A DNA stretch of 55,119 bases, from the NCBI GenBank assembly GCA_964535455.1, contig CAZHTZ010000002.1, positions 1 through 55,119 on the forward strand. Reading direction: 5' to 3'. Shown here piece after piece: positions 28,852-47,789 of the stretch. Within the stretch, counting starts at the first letter, position 1; each line of letters opens with the position of its first letter. Under the pieces are notes generated by a model. The model had not been told where the DNA came from and made no database searches. It worked only from the letters and a program-made list of their open reading frames with translations. The position numbers and the translations under genes were made by a program. The stretch is from an uncultured Caldilineales bacterium (GTDB lineage: Bacteria; Chloroflexota; Anaerolineae; J102).

Positions 28852-31185
28852 TTAGGACGGCTCCAGGGAAAACGGGAGTTTCACGCGCACGGCATTGCCG
28901 GTGCGGAGTGTCAGCACCATCCCAACGAGACCGGACGCCTCCGTTTCAACGTCCTGAGCGGTCACAGGCAGGCCGGCTGGCAGTTCCCCCGTCGCCGGTG
29001 GTTGGCGGGTGAGCATGACACACGGCACCACAACCTCCTCCAAAGCTACGCCTCCATGGTAGCCGCGACGCGGGTTCTGGCCGAAGTAAGCGCCACTGGT
29101 TGCCAGCAGCGCCACACGTTGGCCGTCCTGGACGCGCACGATGTTGGCGTCGCTGGAGGCCACCGCATCTTCGGGCAGCAGCCCGCCAGAAGCAAGCGGG
29201 GCAAAGCGTTCCCCACCCCCCGGCACCTGGGGGCCCCGGCGCAGTTTCTTGTCGCGGTGCCAGGTATGGCCATGGTCCGCCGTTATCAGCACCGCCCAGT
29301 CGGCCTGCAATGCAGTCTGAACGGCGCGGTTAAGAGGGTCGAGATCCTGCAGTTCAGGCAACTTGACGTTCGTCGTGCTGTTCTTGAGGTCGTCATCGAT
29401 GGCGTTGATGATGAGCGCGATACAGTCCAACGACGCAAACTGCAGCTCCTGTAACAGCTGCTCCGGTTCGAGATTGCCCTTGCTGTAGAGGTGCACCTTT
29501 CGTCCGTGTAACGCCTTGGCCAGCGCCTGGACCTCACCGGTGCGGGCTTTCTGCTCATACGTCTCGTCGTCGTCGAGCCGGTCTGTAGGCATGTTGTCCA
29601 GAAATAGGGCGCGACGCGAGACAGAGGTGACCGACGGAAGCAGAGCAAGAGCACTGCGCACGTGGGCAGGATACGCAGGGGTCTTGGCGCTGGCCCACTG
29701 TCGCATCATGTACCAGAAGTCGGGATAGCTCATGCCATCCACAACGATCAGAAGTACCCTTCGTCCCTCCTCCAAGAGGGGACGCACGATCCAACGCAGG
29801 ATATGGTGGACGCCAAAAGCGCCATCGTGATAGTGCAGGGAGGTTTCATAACTGGCGAGATAGCGCGTGGCAAAGGCCCGGTTGAGTCCGTTGCGCCAAT
29901 CCCAGTGGTCCTTGAGCACCTGGCTGATGGCAGCTCTCAGTCCCGCACCCTGGCCGTGGTAGCGCATCAGCTCAAGAGCGGCAAGATCGAGCACTGAGCC
30001 ATATTGGGCATACCAGCCAGCCCACGCTGAGACTGCGCCTTGGTCCGGAGCCTTGCGCAGCAAGGCGACTGCGTCGGCCTGCTGCCGGCGCCCACTCACC
30101 GCCGTCGTCAACGTCTCCAGTACGTCCAGGCGGTCCACATAGTCCCCGGCAAAGAGATGACCACGCATCTGTTGAAGTCGTTCCGGGGGTGGGAGATGTC
30201 CTGCCGCAACGCCCTCTGCCAGGCGGTCGATCTCGGCGACAAGAGTCGTCGGAAACCAGCGCACGTAGCTGCCAGGCGGCAGGACAGCGACCAGATCGCG
30301 CTCGGCATCCTCGACGACGGCGCGCATCTGCGGCCGCGGAAGCAGTTCCAGCGCGGCGACGGCCAGGTCCATCACGCCGGACATGGCTTCGGCTTCCGGA
30401 ATCTGTCGTGCGCCGACCAACTTCGCACGCAAGGAGGTGAGGCTACCCCAGTTCGGCGCCAGACGAACATCACGTTCGGCAGCCATCATCAGTCCCGTGC
30501 GCACCAGTGTTGCAGCGCGGCCTGCTTCTTCAGAAGCCCAGACCAACGTGTCGGCATGTAGTGGTAACGCAGCGCGCAGATGGGCCTCCAGGATGGCAAG
30601 CTCCAAGGCGCTGGGAGGGGAACCCCCGTGCAACTGGGCCACGATCAGGTCGGCCAGGAGCTGCGGCGAAGTACGCCCAAGGAGTGTGATGCCAAACGCG
30701 GCCTTCAGGAGAAGAGCCTCCAGGTCATTGTGCGAGATGGCCCAGTTGAGGGCGCCGGCCTGCACAACCTGTCGTACGAGGAAGTCAAGATGGCGCTCCA
30801 CGGTAGTGCGCCATTCCGAGTGATCCACTTCGGGAGGCCACTCACGCCCCGTCAGGGCCTGAAGATAGGCGCGCAACCCCAGGCGGAAAACGGTCCTCCC
30901 GTGCAAGCGGGCGCGAACGTCCAGCGGCGCCTGTGCCGTGACGCCGCTCGCCAGTAACCAGATCACGCGACCGCCGGGAGCCTGACAAAGGGCGCGGCGC
31001 AGGACCAGCTCGGAGTCCGTCAGCACTTGCCACCAGATGGCGCCCTGGAAGGTGACGGGGGTGACCGCATCCGTGATCGGCGGTGTATGCTGCCCCCAAT
31101 CCACTTCCAGAGCCAACACCCCGGCCACCGGCTCACCGATGCCGCCCAGATAGTGTTGCAGGGCTGAACTCAGCGTGTCAGCCAT
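28852..31185 (-). CDS. pglZ: PglZ-domain (alkaline-phosphatase-fold) BREX protein
   Basis: ...RVLLIVVDGMSYPDFWYMM...LITADHGHTWH... has a PglZ/alkaline-phosphatase-like core. Its ATG overlaps the stop of the upstream ATPase gene by 8 nt. Confidence 0.8.
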   Translation of the reverse strand: MADTLSSALQHYLGGIGEPVAGVLALEVDWGQHTPPITDAVTPVTFQGAIWWQVLTDSELVLRRALCQAPGGRVIWLLASGVTAQAPLDVRARLHGRTVFRLGLRAYLQALTGREWPPEVDHSEWRTTVERHLDFLVRQVVQAGALNWAISHNDLEALLLKAAFGITLLGRTSPQLLADLIVAQLHGGSPPSALELAILEAHLRAALPLHADTLVWASEEAGRAATLVRTGLMMAAERDVRLAPNWGSLTSLRAKLVGARQIPEAEAMSGVMDLAVAALELLPRPQMRAVVEDAERDLVAVLPPGSYVRWFPTTLVAEIDRLAEGVAAGHLPPPERLQQMRGHLFAGDYVDRLDVLETLTTAVSGRRQQADAVALLRKAPDQGAVSAWAGWYAQYGSVLDLAALELMRYHGQGAGLRAAISQVLKDHWDWRNGLNRAFATRYLASYETSLHYHDGAFGVHHILRWIVRPLLEEGRRVLLIVVDGMSYPDFWYMMRQWASAKTPAYPAHVRSALALLPSVTSVSRRALFLDNMPTDRLDDDETYEQKARTGEVQALAKALHGRKVHLYSKGNLEPEQLLQELQFASLDCIALIINAIDDDLKNSTTNVKLPELQDLDPLNRAVQTALQADWAVLITADHGHTWHRDKKLRRGPQVPGGGERFAPLASGGLLPEDAVASSDANIVRVQDGQRVALLATSGAYFGQNPRRGYHGGVALEEVVVPCVMLTRQPPATGELPAGLPVTAQDVETEASGLVGMVLTLRTGNAVRVKLPFSLEPS

Positions 31186-34100
31186 CGCCGCGCACCTGCG
31201 TGATCTCGATGCGAACCACGATATCCGATTTCGCCTCGTCGATTGCTACCCCGTCTTGCTCCAGGAGCGAGGCTATGGCGCTTCCCCACGTTTCTGCGTT
31301 CAGTTCACTGGTCTTGTCGTCGATGTCGATCTGGACTGACTTCACCCGTAAGGAGCTTCGGACCTCGCGCAGCGCCTTTCCATCGGGCTCAGGGACGTAC
31401 CGCTGCGGGTCGCGTGATATGCCAGGCGCCTTCAGGGCGGCGTCGATGATTTTGTTGGCGCTCACCCGCCAGGTAGCAACGTGGCTGGCAAGGTCGGCCT
31501 TGGCAGCGGGAGACGCCAAGAAACTGGCAAGTTCGCTGAGGGCGGAGGCAGCGTCAGGGCTGCCGCCAGAGGCCAGAGTGGCGATGCGCCCGATCGTGTC
31601 GGTGGCCAGATTCTCAAGGATGGCCTTGGTAGCCTGCCGTTGGCTGATCCCATGGATGGCTGTGTCACGGGTAACAGTGTCACTTGTGACGGCGGTGGTC
31701 GGAGCCCAGGTCAACAGGGAACGCAGGCCCTCGTAAGCATCCAAATCGCTCTTGAGCGCAAGCGCGTTTAGATCCAGAGCCGCATCCAGCTCAACAAGGC
31801 GAGCTGCGCCTGTTGTGGCGCCGACCATCGTGAGAGCTTCCATCAAACGCTTGTGGGCGGCCTGCAAGTCGGATCGAGCAGTGTTGGCCGCGGCGTTGAG
31901 TTGCCGCCAAAGTTGATCTTGGGCTGCCACCGTCAACTCCACTGCTGGTGGCGTCACCTGCCATGCCACTTTCGCCAGCTCCCTGACATTCGCCCATTCG
32001 TGCGCCTGCAGTCGTTCCCCCCGCTCCAAGATGAGGCCGTCGAGCCTTCCATAATCCAGATCGGCGATGGGCACACCATTGCGCAGGGCGCGGTAGCCTC
32101 GACCGCGGATCAGGTAGAGAAGGAAGGTGTCGCTGAGATCGCGGTTGAACCCGAATGCTTCCGTCAGGCCCCGCCGCACCTTGTCCGCCTCAACGCGTTT
32201 GCCGACCGCCAGTTCCTCCAGCTTGCTGAGATAGCGCGATTGCAGGCGCAGGGTCCAGTTGGCCGCGCCCTTCTCGGCCAGTTCCAACGGTTCACCCAGT
32301 CGATCCAGCAAGATATCCAGATCGGTATTGCGGGGCCTGGCGCCGCCGCCCAGGGCTGCCGGCACCAGGAATTCATCCAACAGCCGGCGCAGCGCCCGCT
32401 GGTTGGCTTCGGTAGCGAAGCGGGGGTGAAACGGGTAGAGGCGGTCGCAGACGGCATCGGCGATCCGATCCAGGACACCGCCCACCGTCTCAGCATCCAT
32501 TGACGGCGTGATGGCGGGGTCAAGGAAACGCACCTCGGCGCCTTGGCCGCGGTAGACCTCCTCCAGGCGCTTGCGCAGCGCAGTGGCCTTGCTGCCTTTC
32601 TGGCCGATGAGCTTGCTTTCCAGGGCCTGGCGCTGGCTGCGACCATAGTCCTCCAGATATAAGTCGGGGTTGCCCTCGATTTCGAGCAACCTGGCGTACT
32701 CGTCCAGGTCGCGCTGATCGTCGGGTGAGAACTCCGCCGGCAGCCAGAACCCGATGGGAACGCGTGGCAAACGGTCGCCCGCGCGCTGAATCGTCTGCTG
32801 GTCGTCGGCGCGGGTGTGTCCGGCATCGGCATCGAAAGGGTAGTCCACGAAGAGCGTGAATTCGTCGCCGTTATCGATCTTCATGTCGTTGATCGGGAGA
32901 TCGGCGACGTTGGCGAAGCGAACGCGGCCGCGACGGCGACAACCACGCCAGACTCGCTCGTAGTTTGGGATCTCGGCGTTCTGGATAGGACACTCCATCA
33001 CCTGTCTCATCAGGCCGACAAAGGCGTCCAGGCGTTGGCGCCAGTTGACCTGGACGCGTTTGAGGACGTCGAAAAGCTGCGCGCCCTCGGCCAGGGTGAT
33101 ACTGACAACGCCCAGGGCGGGGTTGGTGGGGTTGAGTGTGAAGAGCACCAGCTCGCTGCGATTGTCTAGGTCGGCTAGGATCTGGGCAAGGGCCTGATAG
33201 GAGCCGAAGGGTGTGCGGCCGCGCAGATCCTGGTAGTTGAGATGCAGGATGCGCTCCACGGTCACGGCGTCGCGCATGGTCTTGGACAGGCCGCATAGGA
33301 GCACCGTCTTGACGATCAGTTCCGAACGACGCGCCTGTTCGCTGTCACCGTACAGTTCCACGATGATGGGCTGCAGCCGCCCGTAGTAGGTCTGGCGCAC
33401 AGCCTCCAACTCAGCATTGCGCGACCCGCCGGTCAGACCATCGGGCAAGAAGACAGCGTCGAATAGAGAGGCGTAGGGGACCAGACTACCGATAGGCAGG
33501 TCAGGATGCCGGATAATCAAGAGCTCATACAGCAGGCGGATAGCGGCGCGCTCGCGGCTGAGACGGGCGCTGACATCGATCAAGGTGCGGATCAGGGCCG
33601 GGTGGAAGGGGTAGACCTGCCTGAAAGCGTTGGGCGTGAAGTCATTGAGCAGGGTGGCGCGTACCTCGGGAGAAAGCCCATCCAGCGTCGTGCTGATCGT
33701 CTGAGCTAAGGGGGACGCCATGCCCTGACGAACTCGCAGGACACGCTCCTGGACGATGGGCGCCAGTTCGGTGTCGGCCAGCTCGGTGGTCTCGGGGAAG
33801 CGATCCTTGTGATGCTCCAGCGCTTCAAACACTTGCTGCTGGCTGGAGTCATCGGGCACCGTCTCGGCAATGTTGCGCTGTTTGGCAACAATGACCCAGA
33901 GCGGAACTGCACGGTCAAGAGCGGAGTTGTCAGCCAGCGCCACCAGGTCGTTGAACTCTTCCTGATAGGCGCGCCCACTCTTCCCTGTGAGGTAGAGAAT
34001 CAACTCGTCCACCAGGAAGACGATGCCGGCGAAGCCCTGGTCCTTCGCATGGCGAGAAAGCGCTGCCATGCCGTCAGAGAATTTGTCAGGGTAGAGCGCG

Positions 34101-34759
34101 GTGCGTTCGGCGCGGCCAGCACCGCCGTAGGTCAAGATCTCAGCAGCCAGCTCATCACGTTCCTCCTGCGACCCAGCAGCCATGTGGTCGAAACGTCGAC
34201 GCGCGAGTCCGGTTGACCCTTCGAACCGGGTGTAGACTACCTCGCCGTAACGATCAGCATCTGCGCGCAACGATGCAATGACCTTGTCGGCATCGCTGAA
34301 CTCGCAAGGTGGATACCCCATCCGCATCAGTTGTGCATTAGCGGCGTTGTAGCAGGCAGATTGGAAACCGCTCTGCCCCAACATATACACCGGCACCACG
34401 AGGATGGGGCGAGCGGTCAACGTGTCACGATGTTCCGCGGCCACCGCCTGGATGGCCGGGTGGTCCGTCGTCCAGATGGCCGGGTGGCCGCGGAGGATGA
34501 GGCCAAGAATCGCCATGAAGTGCGACTTGCCGGAACCGAAAGAGCCGTGCAGGTAGTGCCCTTCGCCCGCCTCATGGCGATCGCAACTGGCGACAATCCG
34601 ATCCACCAGCCGCGCCATCTCAGCGGCCATCCGCTCGGTCAGAACGTAGTCGCGGATGTTCTCCGCCAGCGTGTGCTCGTCATCGAAATCTTGAATCTTG
34701 ACGATGCAGCTCGGAATGGCTTGGGGTAGATCAAAGACGTCAAGAATGGTAAGATTCAT
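31178..34759 (-). CDS. pglY: PglY/BrxC-like large P-loop ATPase (DUF499-type)
   Basis: 1193 aa. The N-terminus ...IRDYVLTERMAAEMARLVDRI...GHYLHGSFGSGKSHFMAILGLIL follows the BrxC/PglY pattern. It lies directly upstream of pglZ. Confidence 0.8.
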   Translation of the reverse strand: MNLTILDVFDLPQAIPSCIVKIQDFDDEHTLAENIRDYVLTERMAAEMARLVDRIVASCDRHEAGEGHYLHGSFGSGKSHFMAILGLILRGHPAIWTTDHPAIQAVAAEHRDTLTARPILVVPVYMLGQSGFQSACYNAANAQLMRMGYPPCEFSDADKVIASLRADADRYGEVVYTRFEGSTGLARRRFDHMAAGSQEERDELAAEILTYGGAGRAERTALYPDKFSDGMAALSRHAKDQGFAGIVFLVDELILYLTGKSGRAYQEEFNDLVALADNSALDRAVPLWVIVAKQRNIAETVPDDSSQQQVFEALEHHKDRFPETTELADTELAPIVQERVLRVRQGMASPLAQTISTTLDGLSPEVRATLLNDFTPNAFRQVYPFHPALIRTLIDVSARLSRERAAIRLLYELLIIRHPDLPIGSLVPYASLFDAVFLPDGLTGGSRNAELEAVRQTYYGRLQPIIVELYGDSEQARRSELIVKTVLLCGLSKTMRDAVTVERILHLNYQDLRGRTPFGSYQALAQILADLDNRSELVLFTLNPTNPALGVVSITLAEGAQLFDVLKRVQVNWRQRLDAFVGLMRQVMECPIQNAEIPNYERVWRGCRRRGRVRFANVADLPINDMKIDNGDEFTLFVDYPFDADAGHTRADDQQTIQRAGDRLPRVPIGFWLPAEFSPDDQRDLDEYARLLEIEGNPDLYLEDYGRSQRQALESKLIGQKGSKATALRKRLEEVYRGQGAEVRFLDPAITPSMDAETVGGVLDRIADAVCDRLYPFHPRFATEANQRALRRLLDEFLVPAALGGGARPRNTDLDILLDRLGEPLELAEKGAANWTLRLQSRYLSKLEELAVGKRVEADKVRRGLTEAFGFNRDLSDTFLLYLIRGRGYRALRNGVPIADLDYGRLDGLILERGERLQAHEWANVRELAKVAWQVTPPAVELTVAAQDQLWRQLNAAANTARSDLQAAHKRLMEALTMVGATTGAARLVELDAALDLNALALKSDLDAYEGLRSLLTWAPTTAVTSDTVTRDTAIHGISQRQATKAILENLATDTIGRIATLASGGSPDAASALSELASFLASPAAKADLASHVATWRVSANKIIDAALKAPGISRDPQRYVPEPDGKALREVRSSLRVKSVQIDIDDKTSELNAETWGSAIASLLEQDGVAIDEAKSDIVVRIEITQVRGDG

Positions 34760-34825: not shown

Positions 34826-36544
34826 CTACCTTCGTTTGATATCGATGAAGAGCCGGCTTTGATCACACTCCGCCTGGCTTCTGATGTCGACCATAACAAG
34901 AACGAATGAGCCGCGAGAAAGCTGTATATTGTAGTCGCGGGTGGTATCGGTATTGTTCCCAGCCGAAATGGAAAAGTCACCAAGTGAAGATGGTGCTCCC
35001 CCTGCCTGGCCAACATATGTTCCGACCCAGATCCCGTCACCGCAAGAGGTATCGACCTTGTGCGCGCGGACTTGGATGGTGACAGCACCATCGTAGGTAC
35101 TGTCCCAGCGATAGGCCACGCGACCTGCCTGCCCTGGATGCACGTTCCCATTCTCACAGATGCGTACGTAGTCCTCAATAGGCGACCGATAGCAGTCAAT
35201 TCCGTTATAGGGCACCCGTCTGTCAAAGGCTGCGAAATGGCCCGAGTTCCGCCCCTGTTCAAGTTGATAGGTCCAACCATTCTCCCCTTGATTCAGAAGA
35301 GCACCGCGATTTGTTGCAATGGCCTGTGGTGGCGCCGGCGTGGAAGTTGGCGGGATCGGGGGGCGTGCGATCTTGGCTACGCAGTCGGTGCAGCCGCTTT
35401 CGTCAACATACTCGGAATGGACCCAACCTGAGGGATTGGCGATCTTCCACCACATGGTACCGTCTGAGGCGGTATTCCATCCCACGATTGTGACGACAAC
35501 CCCTTGTGAAAGGGTGGCAATTAGGGGCTGATATTCAACGCCAGGGCCCGATCGAACACGCAGATTGTCGCTGGCAACACGTCCTGTGGCTGGCTGTGTT
35601 CGATTGGCCTCCTCAGTGGCTGTCGCCCATTTGCTGAGCTGTGCCACAGCTGTGCTCGTTGCCAGCACCTGAATCGTTGCCTCGGCTGATACCGTGGCTT
35701 GTCGGCTGACTTCTGCGAGTGCGGTTCTTGTCGCTTCAGAACTACGCAGTGCGTCCGCCGTAGCCCTTGCTTGGCTGGTCTCTAAGGCGACTGCAGTGCT
35801 CGTTGCCGATTGGTTCCCTTGTGCTTCCACGGTAGTTGCGGCCTGGATGGTCTGTTCAGCCATCACGGTGTTGGTTGCCGATTCGTTCCGATATGCCACA
35901 TCTGTGGCTTCTTTGTCTTGGAGTGCAGCAGCGGTGGCCGTCAGACGCTGGACTTGTGCCGCGCTCGCAGTAGCCGTTCCGTGCTCACGTGCAACTACCT
36001 GCGCGGTGGCGGTGACCTGTTGGCTCATTACTGCGGCAGCTGTGCTTGTTGCCCGCTCAGACTGGGCAGCCAGAGCAACTTCCGTTGACCGTTGTGTGCG
36101 GAATGTATCCCACTGATTCACTCCTGCACGAGCCAAGAACACCAATGAGGCAAATGTCACCAGGATGGCAACGGCCATGACTGAGCGACTGATAAGGAGC
36201 TGATACTGGTAGATGGACTTACCAGGGCCGTGCAAAAGAGGCGCATTGACATGACTTCCGCACCTGGCACAGTACTGCTCAAAGACCCAAAGGTTACTGC
36301 CGCACTCTGGACAGAGCCTTCTCGGTATGCCACTAACCTGCGGATGAAGTGAGTTCACGGCTCCGCGCAAGAATGCCAGGGAGTAGTTCGTATGCCCTGT
36401 GCACTTTGACTTCAGACACCTCTTGCCAATCTCCGTCCAACAAGACCAATGATACGCGCGGCGACACTGCGGACAGAAAACAACGCTATCCGAATCGTTG
36501 ATTGTCTTACCACATTTTGGACACGGGAGTTGATGCTTGCTCAT
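34826..36544 (-). CDS. Hypothetical: RING-like Zn finger + zinc ribbon + TM helix + ATxTA-type degenerate repeats + SH3b + C-terminal beta-rich domain
   Basis: aa 8-48: CPKCG...CPQCRRAYHWSCW...GKRCLKSKC. aa 78-96: CPECG...CARCG. aa 116-138 is hydrophobic. aa ~150-320 holds about 13 [ES]ATxTA-like repeats. aa ~322-380: LRVRSGPGVEYQPL...GWVHSEYV is SH3b-like. Confidence 0.7.
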   Translation of the reverse strand: MSKHQLPCPKCGKTINDSDSVVFCPQCRRAYHWSCWTEIGKRCLKSKCTGHTNYSLAFLRGAVNSLHPQVSGIPRRLCPECGSNLWVFEQYCARCGSHVNAPLLHGPGKSIYQYQLLISRSVMAVAILVTFASLVFLARAGVNQWDTFRTQRSTEVALAAQSERATSTAAAVMSQQVTATAQVVAREHGTATASAAQVQRLTATAAALQDKEATDVAYRNESATNTVMAEQTIQAATTVEAQGNQSATSTAVALETSQARATADALRSSEATRTALAEVSRQATVSAEATIQVLATSTAVAQLSKWATATEEANRTQPATGRVASDNLRVRSGPGVEYQPLIATLSQGVVVTIVGWNTASDGTMWWKIANPSGWVHSEYVDESGCTDCVAKIARPPIPPTSTPAPPQAIATNRGALLNQGENGWTYQLEQGRNSGHFAAFDRRVPYNGIDCYRSPIEDYVRICENGNVHPGQAGRVAYRWDSTYDGAVTIQVRAHKVDTSCGDGIWVGTYVGQAGGAPSSLGDFSISAGNNTDTTRDYNIQLSRGSFVLVMVDIRSQAECDQSRLFIDIKRR

Positions 36545-36587
36545 CGTCGTGTTGCCTTGCCTGGCAAAATGACAGACCCAGACCCTA

Positions 36588-38858
36588 TCACCTGCTAGCC
36601 TTCCCTGTGGTTCGCTCCCAGAGATCCGAGTAGCGCCACCGGCAGCCGAACTTTACGCACTTCTGGCCTACTCCTATCCAGCATCTCGTGTGATAGGGAC
36701 GTTTGCACTTTGGACACAACACGTACTCATCTTGCTCCCCAAGTTCAACTCCGCAGCTCACACAGGGAAGAGAAAGGGCTGTGTGTTCGGAGCGGGCAGC
36801 TATCAGGGCATGGTGGCCCTCCAGTGTTGGCGGTTTTGCATTCCGTCTTTGATACTCAGTCTCCAGTCGCTTGACTACGGGCCAGACCGCATGGTTCTTG
36901 TACAGCGACGTCAGGATACTGAGCTCTTGCTTCGACAGATTCTCGATAGGGGTTTCCGAGACCACTAGCAATTCGGCGACCGCCTGCAAGTACTTTTGGC
37001 GATTGAGCATGCAATCGGGGACATACATGAACAAATCGACGAAGTACCTAAGTTGGGCAGATCGGGTCAAGCTCAAGAGCACCTCTTTCTCATCAACGCC
37101 AAACTGCTGACCCAGACTGAGCAGCTCGCGTGTTGTCTCGGACGCTTCAGACTGTTCCGAAATCGCCAGAAACATGGAAAGTACCTGCTCGACTGACTCA
37201 CGGCTCAGTGACGGGAGACCTGCCATCCCAACTGCAGAAGCCAATACTCGAATCAAGCGGGGAAGATGCGTGCTTGATGGCTTGCTTAGCAGGAGTTGAA
37301 CCAGGAGAACAACAAACCTCTCATAGCCGGGTCGAGAAGAACGTGACACCGCGACCAGTTCAGTTACGACATTACGCGTATCGTCTTGCTCAAGATATCT
37401 CACCGACTCGCTCAACTCAACCAGTGACGGATGCCGTTCGGACAACTCCCGCAGCGCGTCTGGATTGGGAATGCGACCCTGCCGGACCAGCCTGCTAACG
37501 ATTTCGTACAAGCTCTGTGGCTTGTTGGCATCACAAACTTGCAGGAACTGGTCTAGTTGAATCGTGCCAGAGACCAACCAGGTGTCGGCGCGAACCACAT
37601 GTTCATCGTGAGCGAAACGCATTGCTTCCAACAAGGGTAGGATGAAACCACTCCATAGTTCACGACGAGAAGCATCGTGGCGTCTCAAAAGGGCATCGCA
37701 TAGGTCCAGCACAAGATTGGGCTGTGTTCGCCAGTACTGCGGAAGCACATGCAAGGCAAGGTCCGCAGTCTGTTCGCTTCTCTGCAGTGCATCAGCCAAA
37801 TGGTCAATGTAATTGGTCAGTATCTGTTCTTCAGTTGCACGCTCACCCAACCACACGGCCACCTGTTCCACTATCGCTTGTCTGCTCGCCGGTTGATCCT
37901 CCCGACTCCAGAGTGCCCGTATTAGAAGGTCACAGTCAAGCTTGCCGAGGGAATTCGACAGTTTGGATACCAGGCCAATTGCAGATCTGTCCCACAAGGC
38001 AGCGGCAAGGTCATCCTTGAGTCTCCTCCACTGTGCACCGCTATGAACTGGAAGCTCAGACAAGACCTCGATAAGACGGGCCAATTCCGCTCTGTCAGAG
38101 CATGCTTCACACAGCATATAGATTTGGGAGGCATAGCCAGGAATCTGGTAGCCCGCAAAAGGCTCTGGCTGAAAGGCTATCTCATTCTGTCCAGACTCGG
38201 ACGCATGACAAAAGCACACTCGAAAGGGGTCTTCTTTCGTGGGAGTGACATTGGTTACAAAGCCGACCCTTGACCTCAGAGACTGCGGCACCAGCAGGTG
38301 AACCGCCCGAAGCACTGCTGCATCCTGGGCAACGTCTCCACTGGTTGCGACCGACACCATGCTGTCTTGGCCCACAAGCGAGTCCAGTATTCCGTATACT
38401 AGTGTCCTGTATGATTGCAGGGTAGCCCACAACAGCGTTGAATCATCTGATGTGTCAGTTCGGAACAGATCGGCTTCGGCCAGCTCATGTAGCGTTGCGT
38501 ACACTTGTCCGAGCGGCAAGCTCGCTGACCAGAATCTGGACCCATGATCGGAAAAGGCCTTCGAATCCCAGACCACATAGTATTCTTGAGTGAAGTCGCC
38601 TCCTCCGGATTGCGGCTGTGCGCTTGTCTCAAACTCCATGAAGAATACAGTGCTGTCATCCGCACTTAGGGCAAAGACCTGACCGGGCGCCCGATTAGTT
38701 GGCAGTCTCAATTGTGACATCACGCGATGTCGGAGCGTCTCGGCTTGCGGTGCGTCAATGCCACGACTATGAGCTACGATCGTGTATCCCACGGAGGGTG
38801 AGCCGATGAGTTGACCCCAAACAAACACAACAGGGGCTGGCACTTTTTCTGCGCTCAT
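36588..38858 (-). CDS. Hypothetical 756-aa protein: N-terminal alpha/beta region, long helical middle, C-terminal RING-like Zn finger
   Basis: The ORF has a weak SD (GGATGG), and its ATG lies 9 nt after the GTPase gene stop. The C-terminus is CVSCG...CPKCKRPYHTRCW...GQKCVKFGC. I recognise no named family with confidence. Confidence 0.7.
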   Translation of the reverse strand: MSAEKVPAPVVFVWGQLIGSPSVGYTIVAHSRGIDAPQAETLRHRVMSQLRLPTNRAPGQVFALSADDSTVFFMEFETSAQPQSGGGDFTQEYYVVWDSKAFSDHGSRFWSASLPLGQVYATLHELAEADLFRTDTSDDSTLLWATLQSYRTLVYGILDSLVGQDSMVSVATSGDVAQDAAVLRAVHLLVPQSLRSRVGFVTNVTPTKEDPFRVCFCHASESGQNEIAFQPEPFAGYQIPGYASQIYMLCEACSDRAELARLIEVLSELPVHSGAQWRRLKDDLAAALWDRSAIGLVSKLSNSLGKLDCDLLIRALWSREDQPASRQAIVEQVAVWLGERATEEQILTNYIDHLADALQRSEQTADLALHVLPQYWRTQPNLVLDLCDALLRRHDASRRELWSGFILPLLEAMRFAHDEHVVRADTWLVSGTIQLDQFLQVCDANKPQSLYEIVSRLVRQGRIPNPDALRELSERHPSLVELSESVRYLEQDDTRNVVTELVAVSRSSRPGYERFVVLLVQLLLSKPSSTHLPRLIRVLASAVGMAGLPSLSRESVEQVLSMFLAISEQSEASETTRELLSLGQQFGVDEKEVLLSLTRSAQLRYFVDLFMYVPDCMLNRQKYLQAVAELLVVSETPIENLSKQELSILTSLYKNHAVWPVVKRLETEYQRRNAKPPTLEGHHALIAARSEHTALSLPCVSCGVELGEQDEYVLCPKCKRPYHTRCWIGVGQKCVKFGCRWRYSDLWERTTGKASR

Positions 38859-38867
38859 GCGTCCATC

Positions 38868-39701
38868 CTATGTCACTTTGGAAAGCAGCCAGTTCAAGGG
38901 ATCAAATACACCGATAGGCACAATGTCTTTTGTAACCAGCTTCGCGTTGGGATCATCGGGACCGTTGGAAAGGAGATTGGATTTCGTGCGGCTCTTGTCG
39001 GTGAAACCCAACGCTGATGTAGAAAAGAACTCCACTCTGTCCAAGACGCAGAAGCTTTCGATGGTTCGCTCCACCTGCTTGCCCAGGAGGTTGAGCGCAT
39101 AGTCTTGCGGCTCGTTGAAGTGGGGAGAGTGTTCAGGGTGATCCATTTTGGTCAAGACAAACGCCATGTACTTGTCGATGCGCCCCTTGCCTTGGTTGTG
39201 CGTCTGAAAAATGCGACTCAGAGTCCTGAAGATCATCTGACGGTAGCTGCGCGCGTTCTCACCGGAACCGTATAGCGTGCCTGCCTGGATCGCGACAGGA
39301 TCCAAAAGCCACATGATGCCTTCGCAGCCACTGAGATACTCGATCATGCTGAAGAGTCCGTGCTCAGGATTGGCGTACATCTCACCAGAAGCATCGGGCA
39401 TTTCCAGGACGAACTCCTTCTGTCGCCATCCTCCCGGTTTCTGTAGAGCGAACCGATGTATAAAGGGCTTCACAACGGGCGTGCGCTCGGTGGGCTTTCC
39501 AAGTTCGAACAACTGCTTAGTGACGGCTTCCAGATAGTCAGATGTTTCCTTCACTGCTGGCAGGATGGTCCAACCGTAGCTATCACAGTACGAGTTGATC
39601 ATTGCCAAAAGGGTTGTCTTTCCACTCTGAGGTGGCCCCCAGATAGCGAGACTGAGAACAGGTTTTCGGTTTGAATTGCCGAAGAGGCTTGAGAGTGACA
39701 T
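38868..39701 (-). CDS. TRAFAC-class small GTPase-like P-loop protein
   Basis: GGAGGAG lies 5 nt before the ATG. G1 is GPPQSGKT (aa 22-29), G3 is LEMPDASGE, G4 is LTKMD (a TKxD variant) and G5 is FSTSA. Confidence 0.75.
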   Translation of the reverse strand: MSLSSLFGNSNRKPVLSLAIWGPPQSGKTTLLAMINSYCDSYGWTILPAVKETSDYLEAVTKQLFELGKPTERTPVVKPFIHRFALQKPGGWRQKEFVLEMPDASGEMYANPEHGLFSMIEYLSGCEGIMWLLDPVAIQAGTLYGSGENARSYRQMIFRTLSRIFQTHNQGKGRIDKYMAFVLTKMDHPEHSPHFNEPQDYALNLLGKQVERTIESFCVLDRVEFFSTSALGFTDKSRTKSNLLSNGPDDPNAKLVTKDIVPIGVFDPLNWLLSKVT

Positions 39702-39814
39702 GATTTCTCCTCCATTCAGTATCGTGACATTGGTTTGCGCATTGTCGACCCTTGGTGCGCTTTTGGCATCCTGGCATTGGGGCCCGGTTCTCTGACTTGC
39801 TGAGAGTCACCCGG

Positions 39815-40456
39815 TTATGGAAGCTTCTGCCGAAGAGTCTTGCGCTGCCTGGCTGAACCAGGGAGTTCAGATAGCGAGTACATCAGTGCAGAGACAATGA
39901 GCATCGCCAAGAGGAGCGCAATGTTCTCAAAAAGCGTGCGAGTGGAAAGAGGAACTCGCATGATGACGAATACAAAGACCAACAGCACCCCATGCCAGAT
40001 CGTACTTGCTCCCAATGGGACAGCGAACCAACCGTGATCGGTAGGTTTGCTGATGAAGCGCAGGATTCCAAAGGCAATCAGCTCAACCATCAGGATTGCC
40101 CAGAATCCTACGTAGACCGCTGGCGAATAGTCGCCCAGAGTAAGAATCAAGGCGACGCACGCATATGATATGGCAGCAAGAAACGCATACACGTAGGCAT
40201 AGAACCGCATGACCGCCCTTGAAGAGTCGAGTTTCATACCTCTTGCTCCCAGCAAAAGCAGGCCAATAGCTGCCACAAAGAGAGTGCCAAGGATAAGAAA
40301 CCGTTCCCAAAGCTGGGCGGTTTGGCCGACGAAGATCACTCCTGCCGCGAGCACGGCAAGTCCAATTGAGTCGGCCAGAAGACCGACAACTCCTGCAACG
40401 GAGAGAGGGCTGCCGAAAACGATCTCTCTCCTGTTGGGCTTCGCTTTGTCGTTCAT
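39815..40456 (-). CDS. Hypothetical polytopic membrane protein (about 6 predicted TM segments)
   Basis: AAGGAGGAG precedes the ATG. The 213 aa are almost entirely hydrophobic stretches, with short basic N- and C-terminal tails. Confidence 0.7.
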   Translation of the reverse strand: MNDKAKPNRREIVFGSPLSVAGVVGLLADSIGLAVLAAGVIFVGQTAQLWERFLILGTLFVAAIGLLLLGARGMKLDSSRAVMRFYAYVYAFLAAISYACVALILTLGDYSPAVYVGFWAILMVELIAFGILRFISKPTDHGWFAVPLGASTIWHGVLLVFVFVIMRVPLSTRTLFENIALLLAMLIVSALMYSLSELPGSARQRKTLRQKLP

Positions 40457-40532: not shown

Positions 40533-43500
40533 TCAGATCTCCCACCTCATTTGCTCCGCCGTCTCGCCTTTCTTCTTCCGCCCCCGACCTCCAGGCCGCC
40601 GGGCATCTTCCTCTTGCAGCACGACTTTCACCCCCAACGCCTCCTCACCCACGCCCGGAACACCGGCCTCCCCGCGGGCAAAGGCATCGCGGTACGGCTG
40701 GCAGTAACAGGTCGTCGTCAGGCTGATGCCACAAATGCCGGCGATGGCCTCGAACTCAGCCCGATCAGAGGGGGGCAGATCCTTGAGGTCCGGCAGCAGA
40801 TCGCGCAGGGCCGCGCGCAGGCCGCACTGCCGCCAGCGCACATCCCAACCAGAGCGTTGGGCACGGTCGAGTAAGTGGGCCTGGGCATCGGCGCGCTGCG
40901 CAGCATCCCAGCCGGCCCAGCCAAACCAGGGACCGCCCGACTCTGGCGCGTTGCCGTTCCCGCGCGACACATCAAACTCGGCATAATAGATGAAGCGCTC
41001 GCGCGGGATGTTCAGCTTGCCGCGCAGCCGCCAGGCAGTGGCGTCGGCGAAGTCCTCGCGAGAGTATTGGGGTACCGGCGGAGGGCGGTCGTCGTTCGTC
41101 CTTCGTCGTTCGACCAGCGCCGCGTAAAGCTTGCGCAGCCCCGATGCCTTCAGGTAGTGCTCCGGGCGGTTGGGGACGGCATTGGCCCGGATGACCTTGC
41201 GTAGTTCCTCCTCAATGTCGAAGGTGGGCGTGCCGGTCAGCACTTCCAGGGCCGCGTTGACACGTTCATCCTGCCCCATGGGGCGCGCCCACTCAGCCAG
41301 GCTGAGAGGCCGGCCCGCCTGCTCCAACGCCCATTCCAGCTTTTCGGCCAGCCACCAAGCCGCGGCCTCTCGGAACTCCTTGTCGTAGTCGGGCGGAACC
41401 CAGCGACGCTTGTAGAGCGGGTCTTCGAGCAAGGCGATGTCAGGGTTGCCATGGATAAGAGCGATGCGCGCGTCGGCCAGGGGGCGCAGATAGTCAGGCA
41501 GCGGCGCGGGCTGATAGTCGGGAGGCCAGTCGCCAGTATAGCCCTTGCCGGCCAGCTCGAAGGGGCGCTGGCCCAACTCCAGCCGGGCATCCTTGTACTG
41601 CAACGGCGACAGGTAGTCCTCGGCCAGCGGCGCCTTCTTGATCAGGCCGTACATCTCGTAGGCCAGCCAATCCATCTCCTCCTGTAGGAAGATCATGCGG
41701 CCGCGAATGTTATGGCGAAGGGCAGTCAACTGCTCCCGAGCCGTGCGTAGCTCGCGGGTGGTTGCGAATGGAGGCGGCAGCTTGGGATGCGGCGACACGT
41801 AGCCGTCAAGGGCGCGATTCCAGGCATGGTAGGCTTCACCGACGCGCTCAAACAGCTTGCTTGTGGAGAGAGCGGGCAGCTCACCAGAAAGTCCGGTCAC
41901 CTCACCAGCAAGCACGTTCAGATGGAGATGACCGGAGGACAAAGACCGCACGGGAAAAACGAAATCGAGAACATGTTTTGCGTCAAATACGTAGTTGTCC
42001 CTCACACGGTCATTACCGGGCTTCTTGTTGAAGCACTTGCGTTTCAGATAGAAGCAATGCAGGTTCGTGTTTAGCAGAGCAAGGAAGAGCTCGGCACTAT
42101 ACTCACCGTTCTGCTTGGGGATCACACGGATGACGGTATTCTTCGCAACTGCCTCGGCACTCACCGTACAGAAGTGGTTATGGGTAGTTATGATCGGATA
42201 TGCCAAGGTTGGAACCCCAGATCGTCTTGACCAGCTAATCATTGCATACTCGTACCAGTTCATACCTCTTTCCACGATGCTCTTTCCAAACCACTGCCTG
42301 CCCTCGAGATACGACTTGTATGGTAGCAAATAACGCAAAACGCTTTGGTATCGACGTATGTCGATTGGCTTGCGCTCCACATAAGGAAACAGCGAGTAGT
42401 GTCCGCGATCGAAACTCCAGTCACGAATATCCTCACCGATGACCATTTCTCGCAGCAGTTCTGTTGGCAGATGTAGTCTCCTCGCAGAGTCGGACGAGAG
42501 GGTGTAAAGGTTGTCAGCGATTATGACGATATCACATCCGACAAAACTGACCAGTTGTCCAACTGGTACGGATGCGGAGGAGAGGATTCGCTGGTAGCAC
42601 CGGTTCTCTTCCCCTCCAAACTGCCATGGATGAATGGCCATCTGATCGCGCGTACGCGAAGTGACGTCAACATACTCGTCGACGTAGCCAACGCCAGCTC
42701 TGAAACCACATAACACGCTTTGCCACACCTCCCCTTGCGCGGCGTCGGCCGGGGTCCTGGGCTCACCCTTCAGGTTGGATAGCACAAGCAACGCGTCCGT
42801 TGATGGTGGCCGATTGAGAGCATAGAGAATCAATGTTGGCGTACTGTGGTTAGGAACATGGGCGCCGCTCAGGTCGATCACTGCCTGTAGATCATACTTG
42901 GGTAGCACATCTTCTATCAGCTTGCTGCCGAACTGCCGACGGGCGAAAGCGTTGGAATTAATCAGCCCCACGCGTCCACCGTCCGTCGCGAGATTGAGAA
43001 AACGTTCGGTGAACGGTGCCGAAAGCCCAAACTTGCTATGGGCCGAAACGTATTGCGTACGGTACAGGTCGCGCTTCATTGCATCCTGCGCCACGATGTA
43101 GGGCGGGTTGCCAACCACCACGTGATAGCGTCGCCTCAACACCGGCAGGGCACGCTCGATAGCCTCAGGCTGGCCCAATGCACGCGCTGCCGCAGTACCG
43201 GCCTGCACCCCGCCTGCCAGCAGCTTCTCGTAGGGAATCAGGCTGTCAATGGTGACGATGTTGAAGCGCAGGTCGCGGAAGTCTCGCATCGACGCGGGGT
43301 GGGCGTAGTCACTGGCAGCCAGGACCAGTCGAAAGCGGGTCAGCGCAGTGGCGTAAGGATTTATGTCGCAGCCAAACAGGTGCTTCTCGATGATGGCGCG
43401 GGCGATCTGCGTGCGCTCGGCCGCAGTCATCTGCTCGCGCGTCTTACCGGCCGCGGACTCGTATCGAGCCACGAACATCCAGAACGCATCGACTTCGAAG

Positions 43501-44201
43501 TGGCCGCTGCCGCAGGTGGGATCCATGAGCGTCACCTCACGGAAGTCCATCTCCTCGAAGCGTTTGAGCAGCGTGTTCTCCAGGATGAACTGGGCGATAA
43601 AGTCGGGGGTTTGCAGCAGGGCGTAGCGCTCGCGAATCTCGGGGTCCAGTTCCTGGTACAAATCCCCAATGAAACGTGTCTGGAACCCGGCGTCGCCTCG
43701 AGCAGTGTCGGACCGAAAATCGAAACGCAGCCAGCCGGAGTGATCGGCGTCCTGCCGCCGCCAGACATCATCCAGGAAGCGCTGCACCAGGTCATCGGCC
43801 GGGAGTGCCAGGTCGTAGTCGTTCGGCTCGAACAGGTCGGGAAGCAGGTGGGCGGCATCCCAGAAACAGAACTGAACATACCTTGCCGCGCCCAGGTTGC
43901 GGGTCAACTGCTGCCACATGCGCTGGCCATCGACGCTGCGCAGACGGGTCGCACCCAGGAGGTCGCGGTCCTCCAGCACGCGCAAGAACAGGATCCGCAG
44001 GATGAACTGGATGGCGGCCTGCCGGCACCAACGATCGAGCCAGACGGTCAACGGTTCGTCGGTGCCTTCGCTGTTGTAGATGCGCTCCACACGGCGCGTC
44101 AGGCGCGGCGAAGCCTCGATGCGGTGGCGGATGCTTTCGGCCACCAGCATGCGCCAGCGTTGCAGGAGGAGGCGAAGTTCGAGGTAGCGATCGAGTTCCA
44201 T
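40533..44201 (-). CDS. pglX: PglX-type N6-adenine DNA methyltransferase (BREX)
   Basis: 1222 aa. The SAM-binding region is LMDPTCGSGHF and the catalytic motif is VVGNPPYIV. The size and position are typical of BREX PglX. Confidence 0.85.
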   Translation of the reverse strand: MELDRYLELRLLLQRWRMLVAESIRHRIEASPRLTRRVERIYNSEGTDEPLTVWLDRWCRQAAIQFILRILFLRVLEDRDLLGATRLRSVDGQRMWQQLTRNLGAARYVQFCFWDAAHLLPDLFEPNDYDLALPADDLVQRFLDDVWRRQDADHSGWLRFDFRSDTARGDAGFQTRFIGDLYQELDPEIRERYALLQTPDFIAQFILENTLLKRFEEMDFREVTLMDPTCGSGHFEVDAFWMFVARYESAAGKTREQMTAAERTQIARAIIEKHLFGCDINPYATALTRFRLVLAASDYAHPASMRDFRDLRFNIVTIDSLIPYEKLLAGGVQAGTAAARALGQPEAIERALPVLRRRYHVVVGNPPYIVAQDAMKRDLYRTQYVSAHSKFGLSAPFTERFLNLATDGGRVGLINSNAFARRQFGSKLIEDVLPKYDLQAVIDLSGAHVPNHSTPTLILYALNRPPSTDALLVLSNLKGEPRTPADAAQGEVWQSVLCGFRAGVGYVDEYVDVTSRTRDQMAIHPWQFGGEENRCYQRILSSASVPVGQLVSFVGCDIVIIADNLYTLSSDSARRLHLPTELLREMVIGEDIRDWSFDRGHYSLFPYVERKPIDIRRYQSVLRYLLPYKSYLEGRQWFGKSIVERGMNWYEYAMISWSRRSGVPTLAYPIITTHNHFCTVSAEAVAKNTVIRVIPKQNGEYSAELFLALLNTNLHCFYLKRKCFNKKPGNDRVRDNYVFDAKHVLDFVFPVRSLSSGHLHLNVLAGEVTGLSGELPALSTSKLFERVGEAYHAWNRALDGYVSPHPKLPPPFATTRELRTAREQLTALRHNIRGRMIFLQEEMDWLAYEMYGLIKKAPLAEDYLSPLQYKDARLELGQRPFELAGKGYTGDWPPDYQPAPLPDYLRPLADARIALIHGNPDIALLEDPLYKRRWVPPDYDKEFREAAAWWLAEKLEWALEQAGRPLSLAEWARPMGQDERVNAALEVLTGTPTFDIEEELRKVIRANAVPNRPEHYLKASGLRKLYAALVERRRTNDDRPPPVPQYSREDFADATAWRLRGKLNIPRERFIYYAEFDVSRGNGNAPESGGPWFGWAGWDAAQRADAQAHLLDRAQRSGWDVRWRQCGLRAALRDLLPDLKDLPPSDRAEFEAIAGICGISLTTTCYCQPYRDAFARGEAGVPGVGEEALGVKVVLQEEDARRPGGRGRKKKGETAEQMRWEI

Positions 44202-44203
44202 GG

Positions 44204-44755
44204 TTAGAGGAGCCGATCCTGGACCACTGGCGGCGGCCCCGGATGGTGCTCAGAAGGAGGCGGGACGACCTCGTAAGCCGGCGAACCAGCGCCGGTTTGA
44301 GGCAGCGTGCCATGGATCAGCAGCGTCTGCCCTTGCAGCCGGCCACCGGCGGCGATCACGCAGAGGCCGGCCTCGGTAGCGTCATAGAAAGCCGTGGCCA
44401 CGTCAATGCCGTAGCGTACCGCCAGGTTGACGTTGCCGACCACCAGCGGCTGCCGGCGATTGATACGGACGGTAACGCCACGCAGCCAGTTCTTGGCCAG
44501 GCGCTGCCCGATGGCGAGGGTTCCACGCCTCTCCAATGCCACATGCTCATTCCAGTCGTCTGCTTCCATCGCCGCAAGCAGCCCGCAATCGAAGTCCACG
44601 TAGTGAGCGCCGAGCGCTTGCGCCAGGGCGGGTGCATCGCGGTGCGCGCTCTCCAGGGGCAAGGCTACAAGCACCAGGTTGCGACCATTAAGCTGACCGG
44701 CGCGCTCACAGAGAAACTCGATCAATTGGGTCATTGTCACACGGCTCTCTGTCAC
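44204..44755 (-). CDS. Hypothetical protein, tightly coupled upstream of pglX
   Basis: GTG at 44755 with GAGGA 6 nt upstream (an alternative ATG is at 44734). Its stop lies 2 nt before the pglX ATG. No recognisable motif. Its position is analogous to brxB. Confidence 0.6.
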   Translation of the reverse strand: MTESRVTMTQLIEFLCERAGQLNGRNLVLVALPLESAHRDAPALAQALGAHYVDFDCGLLAAMEADDWNEHVALERRGTLAIGQRLAKNWLRGVTVRINRRQPLVVGNVNLAVRYGIDVATAFYDATEAGLCVIAAGGRLQGQTLLIHGTLPQTGAGSPAYEVVPPPSEHHPGPPPVVQDRLL

Positions 44756-44799
44756 GAGGCGTCCTCACACGGCAGTTGGCGTCAATTGGCTGTATCTAC

Positions 44800-45639
44800 T
44801 CAGGAAATGATTGCGGCGACGATTTTTGATATCGCATCGGGCCCGGCCAGCGTCACCTGCTTTTCCGAACCGAAGAAGTTGGTCACAACAAGACCTGCGG
44901 CCTCCGCCTCCTCTACGGCGTAGCGCGCAAACGCCGGCGTTGTGCCATAACCGACGCGCGTCCAGGAGGTTCCCGTAACGTAGTCCAGCGATCGGGAGGT
45001 CCACCCGCGCTCGTTGAACTCCGTCGCCAGCGAGAACCAGAAGGCGCGGACATCCGGTTCATAGAAGCGGGCAAAGAACCGCTTGGCGATGCGGTCGCCG
45101 GGCACGGCACGCGCCTCAAGCAGGCCGAACTTTGTCAGGTGAGCGGTGATGTGATTGCGGGTCTTCTCAGCCGTGCTTGGCGTTGACGTGGTGAGCCGGC
45201 CAGCCAAAAAAGCGGTCCAGTCCTCCACCGTGATCTCGCCCTCTTGGGCCTTGCCCAGGCCGCGGGTGCTCGACTCGGCCCTGGGCAGCACGAGGTCACG
45301 CAGTGCCTCCCAGACGAGGGATGTGGACCGCAGGTATTGGCCCAGCAACAGATCCCTTCGCAGCCGTGCAGGCAGGCCCTCGTTCCGCAACAGGATCAGA
45401 AGCGGCGTCACGACAATGCAGTCGCCCTCTACCACGAGAAACTTGGCCTGCACAGCGTGAACGATCTCCTGGCGTCGTTTAAGTGACGCTTGCGAGAGGC
45501 GCATCCGCGCCTCCTGGCGCCAGGCAGCTACGCCGGGATACTCTCGCGTGAGAGCCACCAGCGTAAGTGCTTCGTCGATGTCGATGGACTTCGTCAGCGG
45601 GCCGTAGCGACCCACGACAGCGGTTGCGGTCACAGCCAC
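44800..45639 (-). CDS. Hypothetical protein (weak BrxA/DUF1819-like impression)
   Basis: GTG start overlapping the upstream gene's stop. The segment ...VEDWTAFLAGRLTTSTPSTAEKTRNHITAHLTKFGLLE... recalls the C-terminal part of BrxA-like proteins. Unverified. Confidence 0.55.
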   Translation of the reverse strand: MAVTATAVVGRYGPLTKSIDIDEALTLVALTREYPGVAAWRQEARMRLSQASLKRRQEIVHAVQAKFLVVEGDCIVVTPLLILLRNEGLPARLRRDLLLGQYLRSTSLVWEALRDLVLPRAESSTRGLGKAQEGEITVEDWTAFLAGRLTTSTPSTAEKTRNHITAHLTKFGLLEARAVPGDRIAKRFFARFYEPDVRAFWFSLATEFNERGWTSRSLDYVTGTSWTRVGYGTTPAFARYAVEEAEAAGLVVTNFFGSEKQVTLAGPDAISKIVAAIIS

Positions 45640-46851: not shown

Positions 46852-46926
46852 ATGACCAATCCATTCCCAGCTACTAGAGCGTTCCCGTATGTGTCTTTGA
46901 AACACGATTGTGAAGCGATAGTATGA
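46852..46926 (+). CDS. 24-codon upstream mini-ORF translationally coupled to the toxin gene
   Basis: AGGAGG lies 5 nt before the ATG at 46852. The peptide is MTNPFPATRAFPYVSLKHDCEAIV. Its TGA overlaps the toxin ATG (ATGA at 46923-46926). The toxin gene has no SD of its own. Confidence 0.35.
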   Translation: MTNPFPATRAFPYVSLKHDCEAIV

Positions 46927-47498: not shown

Positions 47499-47789
47499 AT
47501 GACCCTAAGATTCGACGACTACCTGTCTGCGAAGCTTGAAGATGTGGACTTCGCCGCCGCCTTCCAAGCTCTCGAAACGCGCTTTGCTGTAGCGAGGCAA
47601 ATCATTGACTTGCGTCAACGCTTGGGTTTGACGCAGGCTGATCTGGCTGCACGCACGGGCACGAGACAGTCCGGCATTTCTCGTCTCGAAAACGCCACAT
47701 CGTTGCCAACCTTGAGCTTTCTCAGTCGAGTCGCTGATGCTTTGGACGCCGATATCGAGGTTCGATTGGTTCTCAGAGAACGACTCTAA
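47499..47789 (+). CDS. XRE-family HTH antitoxin (HigA-like)
   Basis: ...LRQRLGLTQADLAARTGTRQSGISRLENA... is a classical Cro/C1 HTH. It is 96 aa and lies downstream of the toxin. Confidence 0.8.
   Translation: MTLRFDDYLSAKLEDVDFAAAFQALETRFAVARQIIDLRQRLGLTQADLAARTGTRQSGISRLENATSLPTLSFLSRVADALDADIEVRLVLRERL

Follow-up and report, generated by a model that had tools for sequence, protein, structure and literature searches.

GTPases of the DO-GTPase family form the core of predicted 'GTPase-centric' conflict systems, in which a TRAFAC GTPase with a Walker B glutamate is followed by a GAP1 partner (Kaur, Burroughs, Iyer, Aravind, eLife 2020, PMC7159879). These systems are known from about 1,150 organisms, and both their GAP1-N1 and GAP1-N2 types have been predicted by comparative genomics only, the latter acting at the membrane and featuring repeats that evolve rapidly (PMC7159879). 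Two paralogous GTPase genes are found in 38% of DO-GTPase systems, and Zn ribbons and transmembrane (TM) segments are fused to the GTPase in 60% and 13%, respectively (PMC7159879), which makes paired GTPases and such fusions frequent features, not obligatory ones. A second documented pattern is the embedding of extra defence modules in bacteriophage exclusion (BREX) loci (PMC8565348, PMC12839542). Here we describe a four-gene cassette that lies inside a type 2 BREX locus on a 55,119-nt stretch of DNA from an uncultured Caldilineales bacterium (GenBank contig CAZHTZ010000002.1; hereafter the window, whose positions serve as gene coordinates throughout). With moderate confidence, we propose that the cassette was acquired horizontally and is a self-contained conflict module associated with the membrane, most likely directed against phages, which follows DO-GTPase/GAP1 logic in a new architecture.

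The cassette consists of four minus-strand open reading frames (ORFs) with ATG starts, of 213, 277, 756 and 572 residues, that sit between pglX and pglY. From pglX through the four genes to pglY, the spacers computed from the coordinates are 76, 113, 9, 43 and 66 nt. Gene 1 (39815..40456) encodes a membrane protein with about six TM helices, as judged by hydropathy and loop charges, and gene 2 (38868..39701) a soluble TRAFAC GTPase recognized by Pfam and by its motifs. Gene 3 (36588..38858) encodes a large protein in which Pfam, hhalign and AlphaFold2 together delineate a putative GAP1-like N-terminal module, an alpha-solenoid and a C-terminal Prok-RING_1 finger; gene 4 (34826..36544) encodes a bitopic protein whose RING-like finger, Zn ribbon, TM helix, repeats and SH3b domain were assigned from Pfam, TM and Cys positions. 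An earlier reading of the sequence alone (the sequence-only reading) had given the same four ORFs, coordinates and spacers, and every feature that it named was found in place: a Walker A motif GPPQSGKT with K28 in the GTPase, an eight-ligand finger at the C-terminus of gene 3, and a Zn finger, TM helix, repeats and SH3b domain in gene 4.

Judged by its motifs and profile matches, the cassette GTPase is a member of the DO-GTPase family. All nine members of its own family match Pfam DO-GTPase2 (PF19993; best E 3.3e-8), a match that the database itself had precomputed for six of the nine, and five of the nine also match PF19975; the window protein scores 23.6 bits against DO-GTPase1. The G1 motif GPPQSGKT (nt 39615-39638) is followed by T53, E100-x2-D103-x2-G106-E107, T184-K-M-D187 and SA(L)G, and GPPQSGKT, T53, E100..D103-x-x-G106-E107 and TKMD are invariant in the family alignment. 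The TRAFAC motifs are thereby accompanied by two invariant glutamates, E100 and E107; the exact residue that Kaur et al. call the Walker B glutamate is not stated in the text of PMC7159879. A sequence search of the PDB with the GTPase profile returned P-loop noise only (E >= 0.12). The protein is a single 277-aa GTPase lacking a Zn ribbon or TM segment of its own, and in this cassette Zn fingers and TM segments are carried by the neighbouring gene products. The assignment as a TRAFAC-type GTPase had been made by the sequence-only reading and is borne out; the loose resemblance to predicted 'GTPase-centred conflict systems' that it noted proved apt as well, as the GTPase family matches Pfam DO-GTPase2/1 and the partner is GAP1-like by position and weak similarity.

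That partner occupies the position expected of a GAP1 protein, as the spacer after the DO-GTPase gene is 9 nt here and 9-17 nt in relatives. Its N-terminal alpha/beta module spans residues ~1-300 (nt 37959-38858, minus strand) and is followed by an alpha-solenoid (residues ~240-675, minus strand) that AlphaFold2 models confidently and for which Foldseek against the PDB yielded generic HEAT/ARM/TPR alpha-solenoid matches only (best E 2.4e-3). The only informative distant match to gene 3 is an 844-aa protein (P0015) that aligns to residues 11-299 with an hhalign probability of 97.9% and is 25% identical over 300 residues. Its gene directly follows the DO-GTPase2 gene of a distant contig, L012, whose GTPase scores 33.5 bits, above the Pfam cut-off, and is 27% identical to the window GTPase. 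Because the same adjacency recurs in so distant a locus, the GTPase and the N-terminal 300-residue module of gene 3 appear to be a conserved pair, and we describe the module as GAP1-like.

The cassette also encodes a pair of fingers of the Prok-RING_1 family (PF14446). One closes gene 3 (residues 697-741, nt 36636-36770; 31.3 bits) and the other opens gene 4 (residues 5-49, nt 36398-36532; 34.4 bits), both on the minus strand and both above the cut-off of 29.1. They share the C4HC3 spacing C-x2-C-x12-C-x2-C-x4-H-x2-C-x7-C-x4-C, that is, the eight Zn ligands of a binuclear treble clef, are 44% identical without a gap, and keep all eight ligands invariant in both proteins across lineages. Going by this spacing and identity, the gene-4 finger is a paralogue of the gene-3 finger. 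Two such fingers, above the family cut-off and with invariant ligands, could also be taken as ligases of a prokaryotic ubiquitin-like or E3-type modification module. We consider this highly improbable because no gene for a ubiquitin-like protein, E1, E2 or JAB was seen in the cassette, in the other scanned ORFs of the window or in related loci. Moreover, the ligand order is C4HC3, which is PHD-like, and paralogous fingers on adjacent gene products fit homotypic docking better.

Beyond its finger, gene 4 encodes (all on the minus strand) a C4 Zn ribbon (residues 75-100, nt 36245-36322), a TM helix (residues 122-140, nt 36125-36181), an A/T/Q-rich repeat stalk of variable length (residues ~145-325, nt 35570-36112), an SH3b domain (residues 326-381, nt 35402-35569; SH3_3, 30.2 bits, above cut-off) and a Cys-rich, beta-rich C-terminal domain (residues ~400-572, nt 34829-35347). 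The SH3b region matches the wall-binding region of a phage amidase (phrog_1794, E 8e-6). The N-terminus of the protein is conserved, and the number of repeats and the C-terminal domain differ between lineages; in the homologue on contig L003 the Cys-rich domain is replaced by something else. The 6-TM protein of gene 1 has K/R-rich N- and C-termini and is therefore probably oriented N-in/C-in. It has no match in Pfam, PADLOC, NCBIfam or PHROGs, and in L001-L004, L007 and L009-L011 its homologue is the gene immediately before the GTPase. Together, a 6-TM protein and a bitopic protein with SH3_3 beyond its TM helix give the cassette the membrane- and wall-binding components of a GAP1-N2-type system.

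The four genes are a conserved, co-occurring unit. We fetched 11 metagenomic contigs for carrying GTPase homologues (L001-L011), and wherever these reach far enough the order of 6-TM protein, GTPase, large protein and Zn-finger/TM protein recurs, which answers the co-occurrence check set by the sequence-only reading. Samples with relatives include SRR27710304, SRR19427073, SRR14699978, ERZ794927 and JGI 3300061720. In tblastn comparisons of the window proteins with these contigs, identity to relatives was 39-70% for the 6-TM protein, 51-75% for the GTPase, 26-53% for the large protein and 37-56% for the Zn-finger/TM protein. Against the closest relative, L001, nonsynonymous divergence (pN) across the four genes was 0.15-0.27 and synonymous divergence (pS) 0.60-0.83, indicating purifying selection. 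Independent contigs carry homologues of every ORF in this order, and pN/pS per gene is 0.18-0.43, so that none of the four is a chance ORF.

This conserved unit is rare. In a collection of 5.8 billion proteins the GTPase has eight other clusters at 90% identity (51-75% identical to it), and when 1.84 billion representatives were searched exhaustively with HMMER, only four family clusters of the large protein came up, the HEAT-repeat and spidroin matches in that search being compositional noise. We count about seven cassette lineages among billions of proteins. No relative of the GTPase was found in 185,579 GTDB species genomes, searched with the single protein and with a nine-sequence alignment, nor in JGI metagenome contigs or IMG/VR searched with that alignment, and a scan of metagenome contigs with the large-protein alignment likewise found no relative.

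The composition of the cassette is foreign to its surroundings. In 1-kb windows, GC content is 0.52-0.58 over 34.5-40.5 kb vs 0.62-0.66 on both sides, and GC at third codon positions (GC3) is 0.565-0.644 per cassette gene vs 0.68-0.82 in 17 other window genes. The sister locus L001 repeats the contrast, with a cassette GC of 0.50-0.57 vs 0.60-0.65 in its flanks, and cassette relatives occur in contigs of 43-53% GC. Separate acquisition, which the sequence-only reading had suggested from counts on single lines, is supported by all of this, and its low-GC claim survives windowed GC and codon analysis with one caveat: low GC is not unique to the cassette, because codons 400-800 of pglX are as GC-poor. 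No direct or inverted repeats that could mark insertion scars flank the cassette, and promoter and terminator counts were not above those of shuffled sequences. A prophage origin was rejected, as the sole PHROGs match above E 1e-4 is the SH3b wall-binding region of gene 4 noted above; three further matches (E 3e-4 to 9e-3) likewise lie within the parts of that gene that encode the Zn fingers or SH3b.

The GC-poor stretch of pglX is an observation in its own right. Over window positions 41800-43000 (codons ~400-800) GC is 0.51-0.55 and GC3 ~0.60, vs 0.62-0.67 and 0.74-0.81 in the rest of the gene, which suggests that recombination exchanged the target-recognition region in an event distinct from the insertion of the cassette.

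The genes on either side identify the host locus as BREX type 2. Upstream, on the same strand, lies the type 2 methyltransferase gene pglX (40533..44201; NCBIfam BREX_2_MTaseX 646.7 bits, PADLOC PglX 2e-225), and downstream, also on the minus strand, the ATPase gene for PglY/BrxC (31178..34759; PADLOC BrxC 4e-118, NCBIfam PglY), followed by PglZ (28852-31185; PADLOC 1.5e-39), BrxD (27310-28638; 7e-141) and BrxHI (25142-27310; 2e-228). While these flanking genes match strongly, none of the four cassette proteins has a PADLOC or NCBIfam match as a BREX core component. NCBIfam and PADLOC scans found no PglW in the window. The window is chromosomal, since it carries Suf, split glycine-cleavage P protein and BipA genes; a search for tRNA genes in it found none.

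This setting raises the possibility that the cassette is an accessory of type 2 BREX, a sensor or regulator that modulates BREX or replaces the missing PglW and has no function of its own. The genes are inside the operon, co-directional with it and separated from it by outer spacers of only 66-76 nt that hold no terminator-like sites; PglW is absent; and the pglX-cassette junction is common to two lineages. The second of these lineages, represented by L001 and L002, also speaks against the accessory reading. There the cassette, in the same layout as in the window, adjoins a pglX relic: frameshifted pieces of the 3' end that cover residues 1045-1118 and 1185-1210, lie in two frames and are 72-75% identical in nucleotide sequence. 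Uroporphyrinogen decarboxylase genes are found upstream and no pglY downstream, yet the cassette retains its four genes intact, each of them under purifying selection. The relic and the shared layout indicate that the junction is ancestral to both lineages; by this comparison BREX was therefore later lost from the L001/L002 lineage, in which the cassette would have stayed intact and constrained.

Other evidence points the same way. Searching L003-L011 by tblastn with the window proteins gave no BREX protein match in the visible flanks; the genes after the cassette in L003 encode an Mrr-type endonuclease and a metallophosphatase. PglW is missing from about 20% of type 2 BREX loci anyway, according to a recent survey, no GTPase or membrane module is mentioned for BREX in the largest survey, which covered ~21,500 assemblies, and the composition of the cassette is unlike that of the BREX genes. 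We therefore regard a BREX accessory as decidedly unlikely. That the cassette is intact where BREX has decayed, and that it occurs in other lineages with no BREX genes in the visible flanks, argues instead for autonomous cargo over a subunit of BREX.

Two further observations concern the places that BREX genes would occupy. In L001 a 185-aa ORF (9579-10136) that is unlike any window sequence follows the cassette in place of pglY; its only match is a weak one from the PHROGs portal (E 0.0064). In the window, three co-directional ORFs of 183, 279 and 269 residues (44204-46439, minus strand) immediately precede pglX, in the place where one would look for PglW. Their GC is host-like, and searches of Pfam, NCBIfam, PADLOC and PHROGs gave no match; the BrxA/BrxB-like half of PglW might be replaced by these ORFs, as split or alternative versions of it.

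As putative autonomous cargo, the cassette resembles the modules already described within BREX loci (BrxU/GmrSD, PARIS-like OLD-TOPRIM, Shedu, HEPN and Schlafen; PMC8565348, PMC12839542), which are likewise independent, nested between core genes and co-directional with them. By analogy with these, it probably acts as a second layer of defence. The described modules, however, are all nuclease- or RNase-based, whereas this is a GTPase/membrane module, and it sits in a type 2 locus.

A module of this make-up might also serve a purpose other than defence. A GTPase switch together with SH3b and TM proteins is reminiscent of regulators of polarity or the cell wall, Kaur et al. link GAP1-N2 systems to tubulin/HSP70-type assemblies (PMC7159879), and the cassette has neither a toxin or nuclease domain nor a PADLOC match, all of which would suit an envelope-signalling or morphogenesis module, a GTPase switch with a peptidoglycan-binding sensor, that came to lie in a defence locus by chance. 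Rarity, as set out above, does not fit such a role, nor do foreign composition, a variable ectodomain, and BREX and Mrr as neighbours. Because these are marks of mobile conflict genes and not of housekeeping genes, we hold a non-defence envelope module to be unlikely.

Within the predicted conflict systems, the GAP1-N2 type is the closest described kind. Like it, the cassette pairs a DO-GTPase family GTPase with a large partner immediately downstream, works close to the membrane (it has Zn ribbons and TM segments, and its peptidoglycan-binding SH3b lies beyond a TM helix), joins a constant core to a variable, repeat-containing, non-enzymatic part, and is mobile with a patchy distribution. Unlike it, the cassette has one GTPase and not two; carries on separate proteins the TM, Zn-finger and SH3b elements that are usually fused to the GTPases; has a partner with a C-terminal RING and no detectable GAP1-N2 or GAP1-C; lacks an FNIII-repeat protein and any tubulin, HSP70 or kinase theme; and adds a 6-TM protein and the paralogous Prok-RING finger pair. 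With GAP1-N1-type systems it has in common a DO-GTPase and a downstream protein in the GAP1 position, and N1 effectors are sometimes membrane proteins (SLATT); the cassette differs in having no GASH protein, no GAAD or EAD adaptor, no second GTPase and no calcineurin, TIR, PNPase or peptidase effector. The single GTPase, the missing FNIII and GASH, the undetectable GAP1-N and GAP1-C, and the added RING pair and 6-TM protein place the cassette in neither described subtype. The sequence-only reading had placed none of the four proteins in a named defence family and had put the module forward as a candidate undescribed one. The first part did not stand, since DO-GTPase, Prok-RING_1 and SH3_3 are named families; the second holds only in part, the module being a new variant of a described, if predicted, class and not a wholly undescribed one.

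The more distant locus L012 and two cyanobacterial plasmids, Stanieria pSTA7437.02 (L014) and Nostoc linckia NIES-25 plasmid3 (L015), have no homologue of the 6-TM or RING/TM/SH3b proteins and carry other accessory genes. The plasmid GTPases are 24-25% identical to the window protein over 87-93% of the query, and the LLxP..R motif of the gene-3 N-terminal region is the sole feature in common with the 992-aa Stanieria partner. The cyanobacterial DO-GTPase partners, found by plasmid tblastn, also lack Pfam GAP1 domains. DO-GTPase systems have been described as nearly absent from cyanobacteria (PMC7159879); these plasmids nonetheless carry DO-GTPase genes. In L012, the DO-GTPase2 and 844-aa pair closes a run of ~10 co-directional genes (1457-12535) that includes an AAA ATPase and a Fer4_12 protein, and on the opposite strand the neighbours encode a DUF87/ResIII protein, a C39-like peptidase and Ser/Thr kinases; this locus may represent another undescribed type of DO-GTPase system. 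In L014 (95172-99377) the Stanieria DO-GTPase gene adjoins a dynamin-family gene and an NB-ARC gene, and L015 (44761-49347) carries three tandem DO-GTPase paralogues; in each case a large protein without a Pfam domain follows.

Taken together, a conserved core with a variable ectodomain, an extremely patchy distribution, foreign composition and defence neighbours (BREX type 2 here, the Mrr endonuclease in L003) support the proposal of a self-contained conflict module, and by guilt by association the cassette is a candidate for a defence function. Several results weigh against this proposal. The window GTPase itself scores 24.8 bits against DO-GTPase2, just under the cut-off of 27. GAP1-M (PF20014) is matched by three of six members of the large-protein family (E 0.075, 0.052 and 6e-4) and by their consensus (0.043), in all cases below the 24-bit cut-off; that these weak matches recur at one place, residues ~157-226, speaks for the GAP1-like reading, as does the LLxP..R motif common to gene 3 and the Stanieria partner. 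No member nor the consensus matches GAP1-N1, GAP1-N2 or GAP1-C in Pfam at E up to 1, and residues 1-137 of gene 3 are modelled by AlphaFold2 at a pLDDT (predicted local distance difference test score) below 50, even with P0015 added or with residues 1-312 alone. Neither fn3, expected of the N2 type, nor GASH, expected of the N1 type, matches any of the four proteins or their homologues. The cassette holds no recognisable toxic or enzymatic effector domain, and PADLOC-DB v2.0.0 has no family match to the four proteins at E up to 0.01. Most relatives are on contigs too short for judging neighbourhoods, and the literature searched held no experimental test of any DO-GTPase system. In the mechanism that follows, two steps are purely inferred: that the two RING fingers dock, and that the 6-TM protein serves as effector.

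Based on domain layout and conservation, we can outline how such a conflict module might work. The cassette would have inserted between pglX and pglY before this genome and L001/L002 diverged, and the BREX locus would carry it as an additional defence layer. The gene-4 protein is predicted to expose its fast-evolving stalk, SH3b and Cys-rich beta domain in the cell wall, where this ectodomain could sense what happens at the envelope, for example the adsorption of a phage, degradation of the wall or injection. Since the paralogous fingers are paired and co-conserved, we propose that the cytoplasmic RING-like finger and Zn ribbon of gene 4 dock onto the C-terminal RING of gene 3. The N-terminal GAP1-like module of that protein would in turn control the nucleotide state of the DO-GTPase switch, a step proposed on the conserved adjacency of the two genes and the co-conservation of the pair in a distant system. 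At the weakest and most speculative step, the activated GTPase might act on the 6-TM protein, perturbing the membrane and aborting infection; the 6-TM protein is put forward as effector because it is the only remaining candidate. Such wiring agrees with the logic proposed by Kaur et al. (PMC7159879), which combines a sensor, a constant adaptor, an NTP switch and an effector. A bolder version, which we offer as a tentative possibility, is that the cassette represents a third type of DO-GTPase system, an autonomous trans-envelope phage sensor that signals from the ectodomain through the RING pair to the GAP1-like scaffold and GTPase and on to a 6-TM abortive effector, captured by a PglW-less type 2 BREX locus as a non-nuclease backup.

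Elsewhere in the window, a low-GC patch (0.50-0.52, 46.5-48 kb) holds a toxin-antitoxin-like pair on the plus strand (46923-47312 and 47499-47789), of which the 129-aa protein has a match in PADLOC to NsnC, over its C-terminal part (6e-12), and the 96-aa protein is an XRE-type helix-turn-helix protein (HTH_VI, 1e-9). A 537-aa GT4 glycosyltransferase (9541-11154, plus strand) also matches Pfam 'GT4-conflict' (PF20706, 35 bits); its gene lies 24 kb from the BREX locus amid housekeeping genes (Suf, glycine cleavage).

Of the prokaryotic conflict systems predicted by computation, those built on DO-GTPase/GAP1 make up one of the larger classes, and this cassette is a tractable example, with four genes in 5.6 kb and loss-of-function handles in K28 and the Zn-ligand cysteines. 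Lying in a known defence operon and kept where that operon decays, it offers an entry point to the question of whether GTPase switches act against phages. It also bears on how an envelope signal may be relayed to a cytoplasmic switch and on what RING-like fingers do in prokaryotes without ubiquitin machinery, and it would extend the catalogue of BREX-nested modules beyond nucleases.

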